The notes under the pieces: model-generated
Told to the model about the DNA's origin: nothing
Seen by the model: only the letters and a program-made list of their open reading frames with translations
The model's database searches: none
Part shown: piece after piece, positions 1,973 through 11,932 of the stretch
Numbering within the stretch: the stretch's first letter is position 1
Layout of the letters: every line of letters starts with the position of its first letter
Program-made: the position numbers and the translations under genes
Source: Promethearchaeota archaeon
Lineage (GTDB): Archaea; Asgardarchaeota; Lokiarchaeia; Sigyniarchaeales; SOKP01
Direction of reading: 5' to 3'
Assembly (NCBI GenBank): GCA_011364925.1
Contig: RDOA01000071.1
Span: 1 to 12,280 of the forward strand
DNA: 12,280 nucleotides

Positions 1973-2926
1973 CTATTTAGCACTTTCAATGTTGATCTTT
2001 CGGCTAGTGATCTTGACTCCTGCATTTCTAATTTTATTTATAGTGTTATCCACAAGTTGTTCTGCTTCAGATGCTTTTTTCAAACCAGTTATCACCATTT
2101 TACCGGAAGAAAACAATATAATAGTAACATTTGGACTCCCGCTTTTCATGACTAATCCTGGAAATCTCTCGGCATTGAATTCGGCACCCTCAATATTCTG
2201 AGCGATATAATTTAGATCTAATTTCTTGTCGATTTCCATAGAAACCGTTATAATATGCTTTATATTTTTCCGACGCTGTAATACTTTTATTTTTTTATAA
2301 AATTCTTGTAAAGATACTTTTAATTCATTGTAGGAATCTGTTATTTTAGCATGCTCTTCTTCGGAAACCGAATCCATTTCATCTATATACAAAGCTTTGA
2401 AAACATAGGGATTAGATTTCAATTGAGATTCAAAATCAATGCAAAGAGATTTGATTACTTCTTCAATCGCTTTAGTTATTTTCTGATCCAACAATACACT
2501 TATCATCAACATTTCTTTATTTCCACGAGCCCACTCCGAGCGAAGTTCAAAATAATAATTAAAGGATGATACTGTGCTAGATTGGTACTGAAAAAACTTC
2601 TCTGTAAAGGATTGAGTCATAACATCTAAAAGGCTTTCTTTCTCAATATTATTAAGAGCATCCTCGGGATATGCGTAAAATAGATTCGGTCCAGATTTCC
2701 TTTTAAAAAAAGTGAGCGCTATACTAGTCTTTGTCACAATTTTAGCTTCAGGAATTAAAATGAGAGTGTAAGAAACTTCAGGATCAAGAAGCTCATCATC
2801 AACATAAGCTTTACTTATAGGAAACTTAGCCCCATTTTTGTGTACCCTTAATATTTGATTTCGCAAGCTTATACTTCCATATTTTTGTGCTTCTTGGATC
2901 AATTTCTTTCTATCCCTTTCTTCCAT
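1973..2926 (-). CDS. Multidomain protein: putative AbrB-like N-terminus, longin/uDENN-like middle domain, C-terminal single TATA-binding-protein (TBP) repeat
   Basis: The C-terminal ~95 aa (LDLNYIAQNIEGAEFNAERFPGLVMK...IILFSSGKMVITGLK) match one TBP repeat. The middle segment (IALTFFKRKSGPNLFYAYP) resembles the start of a uDENN/longin domain. The N-terminal domain call is tentative. Confidence 0.8.
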   Translation of the reverse strand: MEERDRKKLIQEAQKYGSISLRNQILRVHKNGAKFPISKAYVDDELLDPEVSYTLILIPEAKIVTKTSIALTFFKRKSGPNLFYAYPEDALNNIEKESLLDVMTQSFTEKFFQYQSSTVSSFNYYFELRSEWARGNKEMLMISVLLDQKITKAIEEVIKSLCIDFESQLKSNPYVFKALYIDEMDSVSEEEHAKITDSYNELKVSLQEFYKKIKVLQRRKNIKHIITVSMEIDKKLDLNYIAQNIEGAEFNAERFPGLVMKSGSPNVTIILFSSGKMVITGLKKASEAEQLVDNTINKIRNAGVKITSRKINIESAK

Positions 2927-4715: not shown

Positions 4716-5019
4716 AAAAAATCTAAAATTTAGTGACTAAATGTGAAATAGCCACGATGTGAAAATTGCGAACAGAAAGTTCACCCTTCAAAATCAGTTA
4801 AGCAATGTTGTGATTTAAATTTACAGATTATCTTTTTATCCTTAAATGAATTACAGGATTTATCATTCTATTATAATTCTAATTATAATATAATACATGT
4901 TGCAATTTTGTAATGGTAATAATAGAATTAGAAAATCAGGATTGAGTTAAATGTAATGTAATATATCTTTAAATGAGAATAATAATCAAACTCATAAATC
5001 TTACATAGAGGGATTGTTT

Positions 5020-5463
5020 ATGAACCGTACTACTCGCTATCAAGGGGCTGTTATTCTTAATGACCAAATATTACTAATCAAACAGCGCTATTATAAAGAT
5101 GGACGTGAATACTGGATGTTACCAGGCGGAGGACGAGAGGAAGGAGAAACCGAAGAAGAGTGTATCAAGAGGGAGATTAAGGAAGAGACTAATCTCGATG
5201 TGCTCGTTGAGAAATTACTGCTAGATCTACCAGGGAAAAAAGATAATTTTTATCCGTTCTATAAAACTTATTTATGTAAACCGTTAAATGATAACGCACA
5301 ACCAGGATCAGAACCAGAATTGGAATCTGGGTTGGATCTCGAGATAGTAGAGGTGGGGTGGTATGATCTACATAGTGAGGCTAATTGGCCTACTGATCGT
5401 ATTTTTAAGCGTTTTTTTTATCCTACTTTGAAAAAAGTTCAAAAGATATTAGGTTATAGATAA
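5020..5463 (+). CDS. Nudix hydrolase
   Basis: Nudix box in W-x-LPGGGREEGETEEECIKREIKEETNL. The ATG at 5020 is preferred over the TTG at 5014. Confidence 0.92.
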   Translation: MNRTTRYQGAVILNDQILLIKQRYYKDGREYWMLPGGGREEGETEEECIKREIKEETNLDVLVEKLLLDLPGKKDNFYPFYKTYLCKPLNDNAQPGSEPELESGLDLEIVEVGWYDLHSEANWPTDRIFKRFFYPTLKKVQKILGYR

Positions 5464-5505: not shown

Positions 5506-5517
5506 TTAAAGGAAAAA
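5506..5517 (-). terminator. U-rich tract after the candidate ncRNA
   Basis: The minus strand reads CCC-TTTTTCCTTT immediately after the 3' strand of the closing helix. Confidence 0.45.
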
Positions 5518-5520
5518 GGG

Positions 5521-6249
5521 ATCGAAGAAGTTGCAATGAATTCCTAAAGGCTAATGCGTGGTATTTTGGCAATGTAATAGAAGATTGTTCAACAAGTTCG
5601 AAAACTTATAGTCCAATCTGTATCCGAAGATACATCAGGCTCCCATAGAAGCTTGATTTACCAATTTCCACGCAATTAAGCGTATCAATTGATAATACTA
5701 CATTGTTTGCGATACCTCTTCCAATGACCATACTCTCAGGCGTAATCGGATGGAAAAGGCAATGAAATCCCCGAAGGAATTAATTGCGAGATATTGCGAA
5801 TCCTTACGAAGTAAGGAAAGTCTTCACTTAATGCGTTCAAACAATTGGTTTTGAAACCTTTTGTAAGAACCACTCCGGAGATTTAATCGAAATTGCTAGC
5901 ACAGTTCGATTTACCGAATTCTACCCGTTAGGATATTATCCAGTAGCATCTCATGAAGGGTGCGATATCTTTTCCGATGATCACGCATTTAAGCATGATT
6001 AGAGAAGATGCTGATACCCGAAGGTTCATTGCTAGTATTTCATTCCATATTTCTATAAAATGTCTCAATGAGCAACTTATTTTTAATCATTCGTCCGAGA
6101 ACCAATGATATGAATTTATATCCGAGGATATAATCTCTCCGTTAAGGAAAGAAAGTTTTACCTGTTTGTTATACCAGAGGTATTCCAATGGGCTATATCA
6201 TTGAGAGTAAATACCACTTCTCGATATTCACACCGTAAGGTATGAACAT
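5521..6249 (-). ncRNA. Candidate large structured non-coding RNA (about 705-730 nt), family unrecognised
   Basis: No ORF in the six-frame track. Minus-strand UUCG tetraloops cap stems at 5592-5609, 5619-5634, 5766-5781 and 6016-6025. Further hairpins lie at 5801-5817, 5922-5935, 5980-5999, 6116-6133, 6134-6152 and 6224-6249. The ends pair (6216-6225 with 5521-5531), and there are several long-range 7-9 bp helices. Confidence 0.75.
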
Positions 6250-6251
6250 TA

Positions 6252-6277
6252 TATATTTACATCGGATAGTATTTAAA
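6252..6277 (-). promoter_or_regulatory. Candidate TATA box(es) for the ncRNA
   Basis: Minus-strand TTTAAATA (6277-6270) predicts a start near 6248, the base of the first hairpin. The alternative TAAATATA (6259-6252) predicts a start near 6229, close to the closing helix. Confidence 0.45.
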
Positions 6278-6391
6278 TGGGACTATTAAGGGATTATTAT
6301 AAAATTTTGTCGCTAGGTTAAAATCAAAATTTTTTTAAGTCGGATTTACTCGTAACAAATCATAAATAGGTCAGTAATATATCTTTACCAT

Positions 6392-6871
6392 ATGACGCTC
6401 ACATTTTTTGATGGAATGTTCCTATTTATAGCAATTCTTTTGAATGTATTAATAAGCATCATTTTCATTGCGAGGTATCGTGGTCCAGAAGAGCTAGAAC
6501 ATAAAATTGGATATATTGTAATTGCGTGTGCGATTCCATTAGCTTTGATTCTAGTAAATTACATTTTAATTGGTGCAGAAATATGGATTATTATCTATGT
6601 TGTTATCATTATTGGTTTTTTGATCGTTGAAACAATTTTGGACTACATCCTCAAACTCGCCTTCCGAACAAACCTAAAAATCGTAGTGCCTTTTGTTATT
6701 TTCTATTATATCGCATTTTGGGGCTTGTTAGCCATCTCGTTTGTTATTAATTTGGTGTTTGGTTTCATCGTGTTTGGTGCATTTATGATAAGTATAGCGA
6801 TTACAATCTACACTCATAAAAAGGATAAGGACAGAATGACTTTAAAAAAAGAGGATCAAACTAGCGATTAA
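6392..6871 (+). CDS. Hypothetical membrane protein (about 5 TM helices)
   Basis: 159-aa hydrophobic ORF. TATA-like CATAAATA at 6361-6368 fits a leaderless transcript. Its stop codon directly abuts the polB2 stop codon. Confidence 0.8.
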   Translation: MTLTFFDGMFLFIAILLNVLISIIFIARYRGPEELEHKIGYIVIACAIPLALILVNYILIGAEIWIIIYVVIIIGFLIVETILDYILKLAFRTNLKIVVPFVIFYYIAFWGLLAISFVINLVFGFIVFGAFMISIAITIYTHKKDKDRMTLKKEDQTSD

Positions 6872-9292
6872 TTATCCATTCTCTAAAAAACTAGCTAAGT
6901 TCTTCTGATTATATCTCCTCAGAACATTAGACTTAATCGACTCTTCGAGTTCAGGGAATTCAAATGGGAAAATGTTCTCGAAAGCTCTTTTCAGCAACTC
7001 AACGTATTTCTTTTTATCGTATTGGTGTTTCTTATTGTCATAAAGATGAGAAAGGATAACTTTCCTCTCAGGAAAATCTGGATCAGCCTCCGCATTAAGG
7101 ATAATATATCGAACATTTTTACCAGGAGACACTACGACGCCTGATCTCTCTAATTGTCTTGCGGCAACAGCCTGGTACGAGTTGACTTTATACTTTTTCG
7201 GCGTACGCGAGATTCTTTGGCGAATTGTAAGTTCATCTCGCGAAATTTTGCCTGTTTCTATTTTATCAATGTATCGATAGAACAAATTCTTTGCTTTCGG
7301 TATTCTTTTCATGAATTCATCGACAGTAGTTGCGCCTTTGAAGATATCGATAAACGCGTATTGGGCGTCTTTTATTATTTTTGGTGCGTCTCTACGGCGA
7401 ACTTCGATTCCTCGCACTTTTACTTCTCCATTGCTTTTGATACCCCAGTAATGGCTAAGAGCTGGGATGTCTGGTTCTGCGCGCGAGGGAAGAAAAGCAA
7501 TAACATTATAGCGTCCATCCCAGCTCATCGGAATACCAGTGGTTTGAGATATTTCATTGGCAATTTGTTTTGTTACTTCCTCGAACTCCTCAGGAGATCT
7601 GTTTTGTATGTCCTTAAGCCAAATCGAATCGACAATTCCATGAACAATTTTACAACCATGTCCTTCAGCAATTTCAGCTGATCGCATAAGAAATTCTCTA
7701 GCAAAAGCGCAAACGGTCTGATGTGCTTCAATCTTCCCAAAACGGGCGTTTTTGAACCCTAAATAGCCGAAACTTACGACAAGCACCCACTTAAGAGCGA
7801 TATCCACAAAGTTATAGCGAACACTTCCGGTTTTTCGCACATATTCTTTGTACTTTAGTCTTTTTTTCAATGGTAGACTTATTGATTTTGAGATTATGCC
7901 TTGTCTTTTTGTACAGATGTGGAAATCCAACCCAGGAACTTTTATGCCGGTGCCGTCCTCTTTGCAACATTTGCAGTTAACAGTTTCGGAAGAGACATTA
8001 AAAGTCGCCATTAAGGATGGATACATGGAAGAAAAATCTAGCTCTACTACTTGATCATAAACTCCAACAATAGGCTCGTAAATGTGTCCGCCACGATCGC
8101 TTTTAATTAAGTCCATTCCAGTATTGAAGCCTTCGGGACTCTTCTTGAAAGGAGGAATCAGATGATCAAGTTTGTAAGCATTATAATACTGTATTGATTG
8201 AAGTGCGCCCCCGATAGTAATGCGACTCAATCTTTGGAGGGGAATTCGTGATATTCGCGCAACTTCAATAACTCCGGGGATATTACCTTCAGAAAAATGG
8301 AGGCTCGCGTATGTTGCTGTGTCTAAATGTATTCTACCGGTTAAATAGACTTGAGTTTTAGACCTTTGCCTGATTATACCATAAGACATGTAGTGGTCCG
8401 AACCTCCAGAAAGCTCAAAGATTCCGTTTGCTAAAGGTTTTTTATCTCGAGATAGGTAAAGGTCTTTCGTTATTCGGTATTTGGAGGCTCGAGAAACCAA
8501 ATATGGAAAGAGAAATTCGTCTCCATTTTGCGTAAGGATAATATCAGGATCAAGGCGCTCGATTACTTTACTTATTGTTCTTATGGTTTCTGCCTCGCTT
8601 ATCTTCTCGATTTGTATTCTACGCTTTTTATACCCATCCGCTCGAGGAACATTATCTTTATCGTTTTCTACTACTGCAATTTCAGCATAGACAATAGGAT
8701 CGTTGTAATACGGTTTGATCCCTTGGTATTGAATTTTCACATCTAGCCAAACAGCTCTTAATGGAGGTAAATCGTAGAAGAGTTTTTCGTTATCGTCTTG
8801 TAAATCTATAGAAACGAGGCGTAAAATATTCGACTCCCTTCTTTTGCCTTTTTCCACTTTGATTTCAAATTGGCAATAAGACATGGGAAAAAGGTCATTA
8901 ACATAAAAGTACATCTGAACAATGGGCAGATCTGTGTTGTATAAAGTAAAGAGTCCAATTTCATCAATTTCTTTAATTGTTTTTTTAAACACTGAAGGCT
9001 TTTCGACAGTGACGCCAAGTATTCTCGACTTCTCGTGATCTTCCAGCTTCACGTACTTTTCGCAGATTCGCACCTTCTTTACGTTTTGATTCTGCGTTAA
9101 AATGTATTGCATTCTTTTGAAGTCGTTCCCAACATCTACATCATTTTTGGGAACTGCAAAGAATTCAGGAGAAAATTTGTGGAAGATTCTTATTACTTTC
9201 TGCTCTTCTTCAGTTTTTACCCAAAGGATAACCCCTTCGCTATATGTAGATACATCTAAGAGCCACCCTTTGAAAGCTATTTGCGTGTCCAC
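6872..9292 (-). CDS. polB2: Family B DNA polymerase, PolB2 (Dpo2) group
   Basis: Motif A LDFSSMYPS, PolB2-type motif B KWVLVVSFGYLG, motif C HGIVDS in place of YGDTDS, and KVRGIEVRRRD. ExoII is degenerate (NGDEFLFPYL). Also N-terminal GWLLD, a CxCC...C cluster and a C-terminal PIP-like QKNLASF. GTG start. Confidence 0.93.
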   Translation of the reverse strand: MDTQIAFKGWLLDVSTYSEGVILWVKTEEEQKVIRIFHKFSPEFFAVPKNDVDVGNDFKRMQYILTQNQNVKKVRICEKYVKLEDHEKSRILGVTVEKPSVFKKTIKEIDEIGLFTLYNTDLPIVQMYFYVNDLFPMSYCQFEIKVEKGKRRESNILRLVSIDLQDDNEKLFYDLPPLRAVWLDVKIQYQGIKPYYNDPIVYAEIAVVENDKDNVPRADGYKKRRIQIEKISEAETIRTISKVIERLDPDIILTQNGDEFLFPYLVSRASKYRITKDLYLSRDKKPLANGIFELSGGSDHYMSYGIIRQRSKTQVYLTGRIHLDTATYASLHFSEGNIPGVIEVARISRIPLQRLSRITIGGALQSIQYYNAYKLDHLIPPFKKSPEGFNTGMDLIKSDRGGHIYEPIVGVYDQVVELDFSSMYPSLMATFNVSSETVNCKCCKEDGTGIKVPGLDFHICTKRQGIISKSISLPLKKRLKYKEYVRKTGSVRYNFVDIALKWVLVVSFGYLGFKNARFGKIEAHQTVCAFAREFLMRSAEIAEGHGCKIVHGIVDSIWLKDIQNRSPEEFEEVTKQIANEISQTTGIPMSWDGRYNVIAFLPSRAEPDIPALSHYWGIKSNGEVKVRGIEVRRRDAPKIIKDAQYAFIDIFKGATTVDEFMKRIPKAKNLFYRYIDKIETGKISRDELTIRQRISRTPKKYKVNSYQAVAARQLERSGVVVSPGKNVRYIILNAEADPDFPERKVILSHLYDNKKHQYDKKKYVELLKRAFENIFPFEFPELEESIKSNVLRRYNQKNLASFLENG

Positions 9293-9294
9293 TT

Positions 9295-9567
9295 CTATTC
9301 TTTTCCTTTTGTTATTTCCTCTAATTCTCCAATCTTTTTTTCCAATAACCCAATTTTTTTCTCTTGCTCAATTGCAAACGATATGAAAAGGATTTCAGAG
9401 AGCATTGGACGAGCGCTTAGACTGCCAGCGTCGGCGTGAATTCTAGCGAAATTCATCAGTTTATCAAAAACTTTTTGATCCTCTGGTCTCAATGCTCTTT
9501 TGAAATCTTTCCAGCTTTCAATCTCGTGCTCTAACGCAGGCCTAAAAGCAGGCACTGTCCGACCCAT
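9295..9567 (-). CDS. Small PolB2-associated helical protein (arCOG07300-like)
   Basis: Signature MGRTVP-x-FR...W-xx-FKRALR-x-ED-xxx-FD-x-L. It ends 2 nt before the polB2 start codon, the usual gene context for this family. Confidence 0.85.
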   Translation of the reverse strand: MGRTVPAFRPALEHEIESWKDFKRALRPEDQKVFDKLMNFARIHADAGSLSARPMLSEILFISFAIEQEKKIGLLEKKIGELEEITKGKE

Positions 9568-11149: not shown

Positions 11150-11932
11150 TTAAAGATTGATCCAACAGTCTAACGTCGCATTTTTTGTGGAACTTGCTAA
11201 GTTTCTTTTAGGAACGCGCGGTTTCCACTTTAGAAGGCGGTTTTCCGGCAAGTAGGGGTGTTGAACAAGAACGTACTCTGTATATCGCTCGTCTTCGTTT
11301 ATCATTACTAATACACTTCCGAAATGGGAAAGAATCTTTCCACCATTAGGCCTGTAGAGCGAAAATTCGTTTAAAGGCGCAGTTAACACGATTAGAGGTT
11401 TTGTTTTGAAGAGAATTGTCTTGATCCCGTTAATCGCTCGAAGTAAATCCTCAAAAGTCTGCTTTTCGTAGCTCTGAAATAATGTAGTAATACCAGATAT
11501 CAAAACAACTTTTATCTGCTCAAGTTTAGAGAGTCTATTCTCTAAAAGCTCTACCATTTGATCCCAAGTAAACGCGCGAGCAATCAAAATATTCTCTAAT
11601 ACTTTTTTAGGCGAGAGATTTTGAAAAACTGCGAACTTACTTACATCATACGGGTTGAAACGGTTGTTTGCATCAATGAGCGCAACTTTAATATTCTCTC
11701 CGAGACCACCATTATTAAAAGATTTTTGAGCCATAACAGCAGTGGTCAACAAAATGTTCGCACACTTCTTTTTGTCACCATAAAGGAGATGTATCAGGTC
11801 TTTTTGAAGGCCTCCGCCGCCTAATAGTTCATCTAGCGTTGTATCTCCACTTGGAACTGAAGGAATTCCTTTGTTTTTGTTATATACATTTAACCCCGAT
11901 TTGAAAGACATCAAATAAGATATTGTTCGCAT
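11150..11932 (-). CDS. RecA/RadA-fold protein with degenerate ATPase motifs (PolB2-associated, ImuA-like)
   Basis: RadA core motifs SGDTTLDELLGGGG, ALIDANNRFNP and LENILIARAFT-xx-Q. Walker A is eroded (YGDKKKCAN) and the Walker B Asp is lost (VVLISG). There is no N-terminal HhH domain. Confidence 0.88.
   Translation of the reverse strand: MRTISYLMSFKSGLNVYNKNKGIPSVPSGDTTLDELLGGGGLQKDLIHLLYGDKKKCANILLTTAVMAQKSFNNGGLGENIKVALIDANNRFNPYDVSKFAVFQNLSPKKVLENILIARAFTWDQMVELLENRLSKLEQIKVVLISGITTLFQSYEKQTFEDLLRAINGIKTILFKTKPLIVLTAPLNEFSLYRPNGGKILSHFGSVLVMINEDERYTEYVLVQHPYLPENRLLKWKPRVPKRNLASSTKNATLDCWINL

Follow-up and report, generated by a model that had tools for sequence, protein, structure and literature searches.

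A tandem-trimer gene of Lokiarchaeia encodes a large, structured and probably circular non-coding RNA of a new family

A non-coding RNA gene that is almost certainly both real and novel lies on the minus strand, from about 6249 to 5520, of the window (the whole stretch of 12,280 nt analysed) from a Lokiarchaeia (Promethearchaeia) genome, here G000. The gene is a tandem trimer of a diverged unit of ~250 nt, which constitutes the entire gene in relatives. Its RNA, of about 730 nt, is transcribed from its own conserved promoter and is present in metatranscriptomes within the limits of the gene only. It is probably circular, a genuine EndA/RtcB ring. Our overall reading, a stand-alone non-coding RNA gene of a new family together with ring biogenesis, appears likely; it concerns identity and biogenesis, not function.

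The gene occupies a gap between a Nudix gene (5014-5463) and a gene for a 159-aa membrane protein (6392-6871). A sequence-only reading of the window had described this gap as free of ORFs and GC-rich, and both descriptions hold: no stop-free frame exceeds 60 codons on either strand, the longest having 60, and the GC content is 37% compared with 21-25% in the adjoining intergenic DNA. A decayed protein gene was rejected on these frame lengths and on a maximum of 57 codons in the rolled-out ring. Eight minus-strand hairpins had been proposed, and we found each at its given coordinates. The UUCG loops had been said to point one way; TTCG occurs nine times on the minus strand and three times on the plus strand. 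The minus strand folds far better than its shuffles (-236 kcal/mol, z -10.98, 20 shuffles), the plus strand less so (-188 kcal/mol, z -3.96, 20 shuffles). The proposed pairing of 6216-6225 with 5521-5531 forms with one looped-out base, but 6223-6217 is not the 5' end, as hairpin P1 precedes it. The attribution to an Asgard genome (Promethearchaeota, Lokiarchaeia) was correct. The large structured RNA of that reading stands; it consists of three related units and is not one unique sequence (table 1).

The upstream TATA-like box and the downstream U-tract of that reading are both present. Farther upstream lies a second conserved block, which probably binds a factor or serves as a second BRE/TATA; in G112 and G115, an 11-nt insertion, corresponding to one helical turn, lies between this block and the TATA box. 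In 48 of 56 elements, 54-57 nt separate the TATA box from the GAGAAG core; the spacing is 33-34 nt where P1 is missing and 76-77 nt where P1 is expanded. P1 is absent from G036 and G072. A pyrimidine or U tail comes after the 3' end in the homologs inspected.

Table 1. Features of the RNA gene and of its predicted product in the window
Feature	Position	Strand	Evidence or remark
Upstream promoter block	6283..6312	-	CGAC box and TAATAAYCCYTTAATAG-type motif; near-invariant in 20 aligned homologs
TATA box TTTAAATA	6270..6277	-	Invariant in aligned homologs; predicted transcription start near 6250
5' leader hairpin P1	6224..6249	-	Outside ring; conserved, with one-sided and compensatory changes
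Processing stem, top strand C-GAGA-AG/U-GGU (/, inferred cut)	6213..6223	-	Ring junction in RNA run X6; motif table of 56 elements
Processing stem, bottom strand ACU-UCUU-CGA/U (/, inferred cut)	5521..5532	-	Junction and positions
Oligo-U terminator-like tract	5508..5517	-	Sequence; U tract proper 5517-5513
Predicted mature circular RNA, 695 nt	5522..6216	-	X6 junction; alternatively 5521-6215 (one ambiguous base)
Unit 1: P1, core, four-hairpin domain, GAAA-capped P4, P5 strand	6001..6249	-	CM R2 match 5997-6223, 183.9 bits (training-set member)
Unit 2, diverged copy	5750..6000	-	CM R2 match 5748-5975, 57.7 bits, E 1.6e-11 (outside training)
Unit 3, diverged copy without P4	5520..5749	-	CM R2 match 5520-5724, 61.4 bits, E 2.4e-12 (outside training)

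Three public metatranscriptome runs from two studies (X6, X8, and X11) cover 5510-6264 only, on contigs that carry no strand. In X6, the contig depth is 7,000-27,000 over the gene and zero in the other 25 bins, depths that do not give the true level or the ends of the RNA and that come from runs picked because they contain the locus. All 30 bins are covered in DNA run X1. Runs X12-X20, with small shares, were excluded from the coverage analysis, and polB2 and the other neighboring genes were not counted as silent for want of RNA coverage. The earlier proposal of a stand-alone, independently transcribed large structured RNA is supported by this gene-confined coverage, by the promoter spacing, by covariation and by the lack of any Rfam match.

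No Rfam family, OLE, ROOL and GOLLD included, matched the element in the window at E values up to 5 or seven homolog loci at E values up to 3, and the novelty of the RNA is kept. The sequence-only reading had found no resemblance to rRNA, SRP RNA, RNase P RNA or group I/II introns; the motifs that define 5S rRNA, SRP RNA, RNase P RNA and these introns are unconserved among the homologs. That the RNA is really a housekeeping RNA in disguise, whether SRP, RNase P, 5S, C/D guide, Y RNA or omega-RNA, and perhaps in permuted form, is highly improbable, even though its core is a three-way junction of 5S-like topology, the Lokiarchaeia family is known here to permute its 5S gene and the G000 assembly yielded no SRP RNA. 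The RNase P RNA gene of G000 (RF00373) sits on contig C27 (131.5 bits), and its CR-I motif occurs in 0 of 56 elements. A separate permuted 5S gene at C53:22727-22894 led us to reject an expanded 5S, and the loop C motif CCGAAC of 5S rRNA (RF00001) is found in 2 of 56. For archaeal SRP RNA (RF01857), the window has no match, AGCAG is present in only 9 of 56 elements, and a separate SRP RNA exists in the carriers G091, G096, G103, G104, G127, G090, G120, and G122, of which four have the trimer. Box C, counted anywhere in the RNA, appears in 5 of 56 elements, and terminal C/D boxes are unconserved. The Ro60 motif of Y RNAs occurs in 0 of 56, and no TROVE/Ro60 gene (PF05731) was found in G000. Concerning omega-RNAs, no tnpB adjoins the RNA gene, which is also the only sequence of its kind detected in the G000 genome. 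Moreover, the RNA is missing from near-complete genomes, being absent behind polB2 and undetected by either covariance model (CM).

Self-cleaving ribozymes and introns were likewise rejected, with hammerhead motifs in 4, group I P7 in 3 and group II domain V in 0 of the 56 elements; no RVT_1 reverse transcriptase was found in G000. The RNA might still be a ribozyme of some undescribed class.

The stable RNA genes of these genomes have peculiarities of their own. The 5S gene of G000, on the plus strand of C53, is permuted and closed by a canonical bulge-helix-bulge (BHB); cutting and joining restores loop C. Other 5S genes of the family (L115, L116, L121, and L123-L128) are also circularly permuted with canonical BHB flanks. 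The permutation point lies after CCGAACCCGGAA in G000 and before CCAUCCGAAC in most relatives, and the Rfam cut-off for 5S rRNA is passed in only 2 of 135 family genomes. Neither Rfam nor BLAST/nhmmer, run with an SRP RNA from the same genus, revealed an SRP RNA in G000, a genome rated 100% complete; this is probably an assembly gap, or the gene may be permuted. The SRP RNA of this genus, as seen in G125 (L079:1500-1780), does not reach the Rfam cut-off and appears to have UGGC in place of a GNRA loop in helix 8. ARAGORN detected only 12 tRNA genes in G000, several of them doubtful, which suggests that many are non-canonically interrupted or unassembled.

The evidence for the ring is one contig of one run. 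This 141-nt contig of X6 (depth 1469) runs from 6164-6215 directly into 5521-5609, joining A5522 to U6216 in the RNA sense. The joined sequence is absent from the genome, and DNA run X1 has no listed joint of this kind. From this junction, we infer cuts between 6217 and 6216 on the top strand and between 5522 and 5521 on the bottom strand of the closing helix, so that P1, the GAGAAG strand and the tail are left out of the ring. The junction omits the top strand of this helix but retains the bottom strand and two further nucleotides, which is the staggered geometry of an EndA cut. It is rather unlikely that the RNA is real and abundant yet linear, the junction then being a template switch of the reverse transcriptase, a library ligation of processed ends or a minor turnover by-product. 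Such an origin would suit a joint whose depth is about 10-20% of the local depth and a motif that is not a canonical BHB, and an X8 contig extending to 6229 shows that unprocessed 5' sequence exists. However, this joint is the sole one listed in the RNA runs, it is exact to one base, it falls at both sites predicted from the homologs and the ends that it joins are opposite ends of the terminal helix, not free 5' and 3' ends.

The homologs point to how a ring could be excised. Their consensus is GAGA-AG/N-RGU for the top strand and NCU-UCUY-NN/N for the bottom strand (/, inferred cut). The bottom CU can slip by three bases, from AG to RG, bulging three bases out. The first two pairs of the slipped helix are possible in 55 of 56 elements and the third in 46, in a table in which the G000 row is unit 1's own 3' end; the pairing of the processing helix across homologs is partly built into the search anchors. 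In the homolog consensus, the cuts on the two sides of a 4-bp helix would lie exactly behind the second nucleotide of each bulge. In G000, an extra C on the bottom strand introduces an A-C mismatch, leaving three of the four helix pairs at the cut observed. There is no outer helix as in a canonical BHB, the flanking bases being mostly C opposite C, and therefore only a relaxed motif of the BHL/HBh' type is possible. The unslipped closing helix of 7-8 bp is the predicted ground state.

The G000 genome encodes two EndA catalytic-domain genes and RtcB; a Pab1020-type ligase was not found in it. Asgard EndA is reported as an (alpha-beta)2-type enzyme, with an L1 loop linked to relaxed substrates (PMC5829648), and by analogy the G000 EndA pair could plausibly cut a relaxed motif. 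As the permuted 5S gene has a canonical BHB, the EndA/RtcB route is plausibly in use in G000. The maturation scheme that we propose has a good chance of being right: a 3-nt slip in the closing helix would present a relaxed bulge-helix-loop, the (alpha-beta)2 EndA would cut the slipped helix, and RtcB would seal the ends. Cutting and sealing would remove the 5' hairpin and the U tail to leave an exonuclease-proof ring of 695 nt.

The trimeric organization was recognized with CM R2, trained on single-unit genes and first units. Unit 1 is nearest to the single-unit (type A) genes of relatives. Folded singly, units 1, 2, and 3 give z scores of -6.0, -6.1, and -3.9, and their mutual resemblance has z values of 4-6. 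There is strong support for a strand swap in which pairing between the 5' strands of unit 1 and the 3' strands of unit 3 closes a single nested fold. The long-range P5, between the unit 1 strand and the 3' strand of unit 3, is paired in 96 of 96 cells, against 63 of 84 for the local P5 alternative of unit 3; like the covariation counts below, these figures come from kin that are not independent and are supporting counts, not probabilities. In G000, G-C is swapped for A-U in this long-range P5. Cross-pairing is also seen for the P1 strands of units 2 and 3, in 93 of 96 and 83 of 84 cells. The nested fold is favored over the tandem one by 9 kcal/mol in G000 and by 12-16 in six close trimers, and thus by 9-16 kcal/mol in seven of eight trimers, G127 being thermodynamically neutral between the two. 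G096 has a single unit in which unit 1 is fused to unit 3's 3' end, and this gene looks like a collapsed trimer.

The homolog search and covariation check proposed for this RNA gave positive results. BLAST detected homologs in 33 of 135 family genomes and a CM of the promoter and 5' end in 58; the unit model added G118, for a total of 59 of 135. The matches are limited to three genera of one Lokiarchaeia family, and no homolog was found in 125 sampled Asgard genomes outside it. A weak class-level match in G155, antisense inside an ORF, was spurious, and a Leptospira pattern match (L043) was due to chance. Viral contigs gave no true match; six pattern matches, two of them inside ORFs, were non-members, and none scored with the CM. 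We found no description of the RNA family in the literature searched, most subscription papers lying outside the reach of that search.

The genes, mostly one per genome, have a common layout: upstream block, TTTAAATA, usually P1, GAGAAG strand, variable interior, P5 hairpin, CUUCUY strand and U tail. Promoter and core are constant, while the interior ranges between about 210 and 710 nt. Without P1, four size classes can be distinguished: A (about 210-245 nt), B (300-355 nt), D (640 nt), and C (700-710 nt), to which the G000 copy belongs. Type D genes (L029:985-1622 and L040:3980-4617, about 640 nt) combine several A-type hairpin modules and a B-type module on one core, which suggests that A and B arose from a larger form by reduction. 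Genome G067 carries two full single-unit genes in tandem behind polB2 (L037:979-1861), 512 nt apart and each with its own promoter. G046, from another genus, has a trimer closely resembling that of G103 (L013), and G104 has two trimer loci (the second being L053), each adjoining a polB2; for these odd trimers, bin contamination is as likely as transfer.

Conservation of the fold is visible in each of three homolog alignments. In the type B alignment, 96.1% of the cells are paired, 16 pairs are changed on both sides, none of 500 shuffles comes as high and slid controls are 35-42% paired. Consensus energies in the sense and antisense directions are -62/-23, -74/-39, and -184/-111 for the three alignments. 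Helical pairs with G-U variants exceed those with A-C variants about 4:1 (31/8, 31/7, and 60/14), in line with the earlier argument that strand-biased G-U pairs betray selection on the RNA. Among 46 elements, the sense strand has 93 GNRA and 40 UNCG loops, and the antisense strand 12 and 0. The P4 loop is GAAA, GCAA or GUAA in 23 of the 46, varying within GNRA. By these comparative measures, the structure is under selection at the RNA level.

At least 25 genomes, from two genera, have the RNA gene immediately downstream of polB2 and co-oriented with it. In the window, PolB2 (806 aa), its 90-aa partner and a RadA-like protein (6872-9567 and 11150-11932, minus strand) form a known archaeal damage-tolerance module, split here by two unrelated genes. 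This neighborhood could mean that the RNA is a component or regulator of the PolB2/PPB2/inactive-RadA module, which we regard as very unlikely: the RNA is transcribed from a promoter of its own, a gene of opposite orientation separates the two in G000, G127, and G090, and polB2 persists without the RNA. Five near-complete genomes of the same genus have polB2 with no RNA behind it; they are scattered over the PolB2 tree and imply at least four changes. Most copies inspected in genus g12 are at unrelated loci. From these g12 positions and the five RNA-free sister genomes, the link to polB2 looks historical and the RNA dispensable.

The 159-aa membrane protein was rejected as an OapA-like partner, close orthologs being present in only seven genomes, two of which (G004 and G005) have no RNA. 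Encoded on the plus strand, it has no Pfam match and belongs to a paralog family represented in 68 of 135 genomes; in five genomes, close orthologs of it adjoin the RNA on one side or the other. Elsewhere in the window (1973-2926, minus strand), a 317-aa protein consists of a single C-terminal TBP repeat fused to an unrecognized N-terminal domain.

For the function of the ring, we tentatively favor a dispensable but abundant structural RNA that may serve as a scaffold or sink, because it is abundant, dispensable and probably exonuclease-proof, and because its core is conserved, its interiors can be exchanged and its GNRA loops differ within that motif. Such a ring would fold compactly through helices capped by GNRA and UNCG loops, alone or with proteins, and the trimer would be the covalently fused form of an assembly built, in single-unit relatives, from separate copies. 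Less probable, and on balance unlikely, is a selfish or near-neutral element in which a strong promoter and a tRNA-splicing substrate yield a stable ring of no benefit to the host, the element moving or duplicating as DNA. The patchy distribution, with clean absence behind polB2 in the five sister genomes, the several different loci, the tandem duplicate of G067, the trimers and the interchangeable interiors could all be accommodated in this way. However, the gene is mostly single copy, no RVT_1 was found in G000 and no ribozyme motif in the RNA, and viral contigs contain no true match. Furthermore, the units keep P1 and the top strand and are therefore not rolling-circle copies of the ring, and selection also acts on helices and tetraloops distant from the cut site.

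Viroid-like circles and retrozymes are highly folded, non-coding and circular, of similar size, and have a genomic DNA copy. The Lokiarchaeia RNA differs from them by its host promoter, its mostly single copy and the lack of a conserved self-cleaving core or Rfam ribozyme match. The maturation proposed for it resembles that of the circular SRP RNA of Thermoproteus tenax (Plagens et al. 2015, PMC4731332) and of other BHB circles (PMC12918454, PMC12558985), in which a terminal stem joins the ends, cuts of the EndA type are staggered and ligation into a stable ring follows. BHB-derived archaeal circles include tRNA introns and pre-16S/23S rRNA (PMC12918454, PMC12558985). Unlike these housekeeping RNAs, introns and intermediates, the Lokiarchaeia ring would derive from a dedicated gene and a relaxed motif with no outer helix, and unlike the T. 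tenax circle it has no SRP helix 8. Circular C/D box sRNAs, which are Rnl-dependent (PMC9014305), and circular omega-RNAs (PMC12558985) are likewise archaeal non-coding circles; the Lokiarchaeia RNA has neither the conserved C/D boxes and, in G000, the Pab1020-type ligase of the former nor the adjoining tnpB and similar second sequence of the latter.

The comparison with OLE, ROOL and GOLLD made in the sequence-only reading is apt for size, ornateness and abundance; no homology to them was found. These RNAs also belong to the 600-800-nt class, have many multiway junctions and are of unsettled function (Kretsch et al. 2025, PMC12286853). ROOL is very abundant yet non-essential, and all three form homo-oligomers (PMC12286853), which the internal trimer of the Lokiarchaeia RNA recalls. 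Unlike these bacterial or prophage RNAs, it is archaeal, chromosomal, built from repeats of a ~250-nt unit and probably circular, and it has no conserved adjoining partner gene such as oapA.

These genes may represent a new class, a possibility that we put forward with reserve: chromosomal archaeal genes whose sole product is a large, ornate, covalently closed and self-assembling RNA made by the tRNA-splicing machinery. In the literature consulted, archaeal circles are introns, rRNA intermediates, guide RNAs and repaired housekeeping RNAs. A ring gene of this new class would widen the role of the tRNA-splicing pathway in Asgard archaea, within a family whose permuted 5S gene likewise has sites of the EndA type; the new part is the RNA family, the cut-and-join chemistry being known. 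If this is true, the RNA would be among the most abundant of these Lokiarchaeia, its trimer would be a genetically fused, strand-swapped oligomer, and a functional circular non-coding RNA would exist in the archaeal lineage closest to eukaryotes. The natural series of single unit, alternative interiors, D-type hybrid, trimer and clean loss lends itself unusually well to asking which core of ~110 nt matters and in what way large ornate RNAs grow by duplication.
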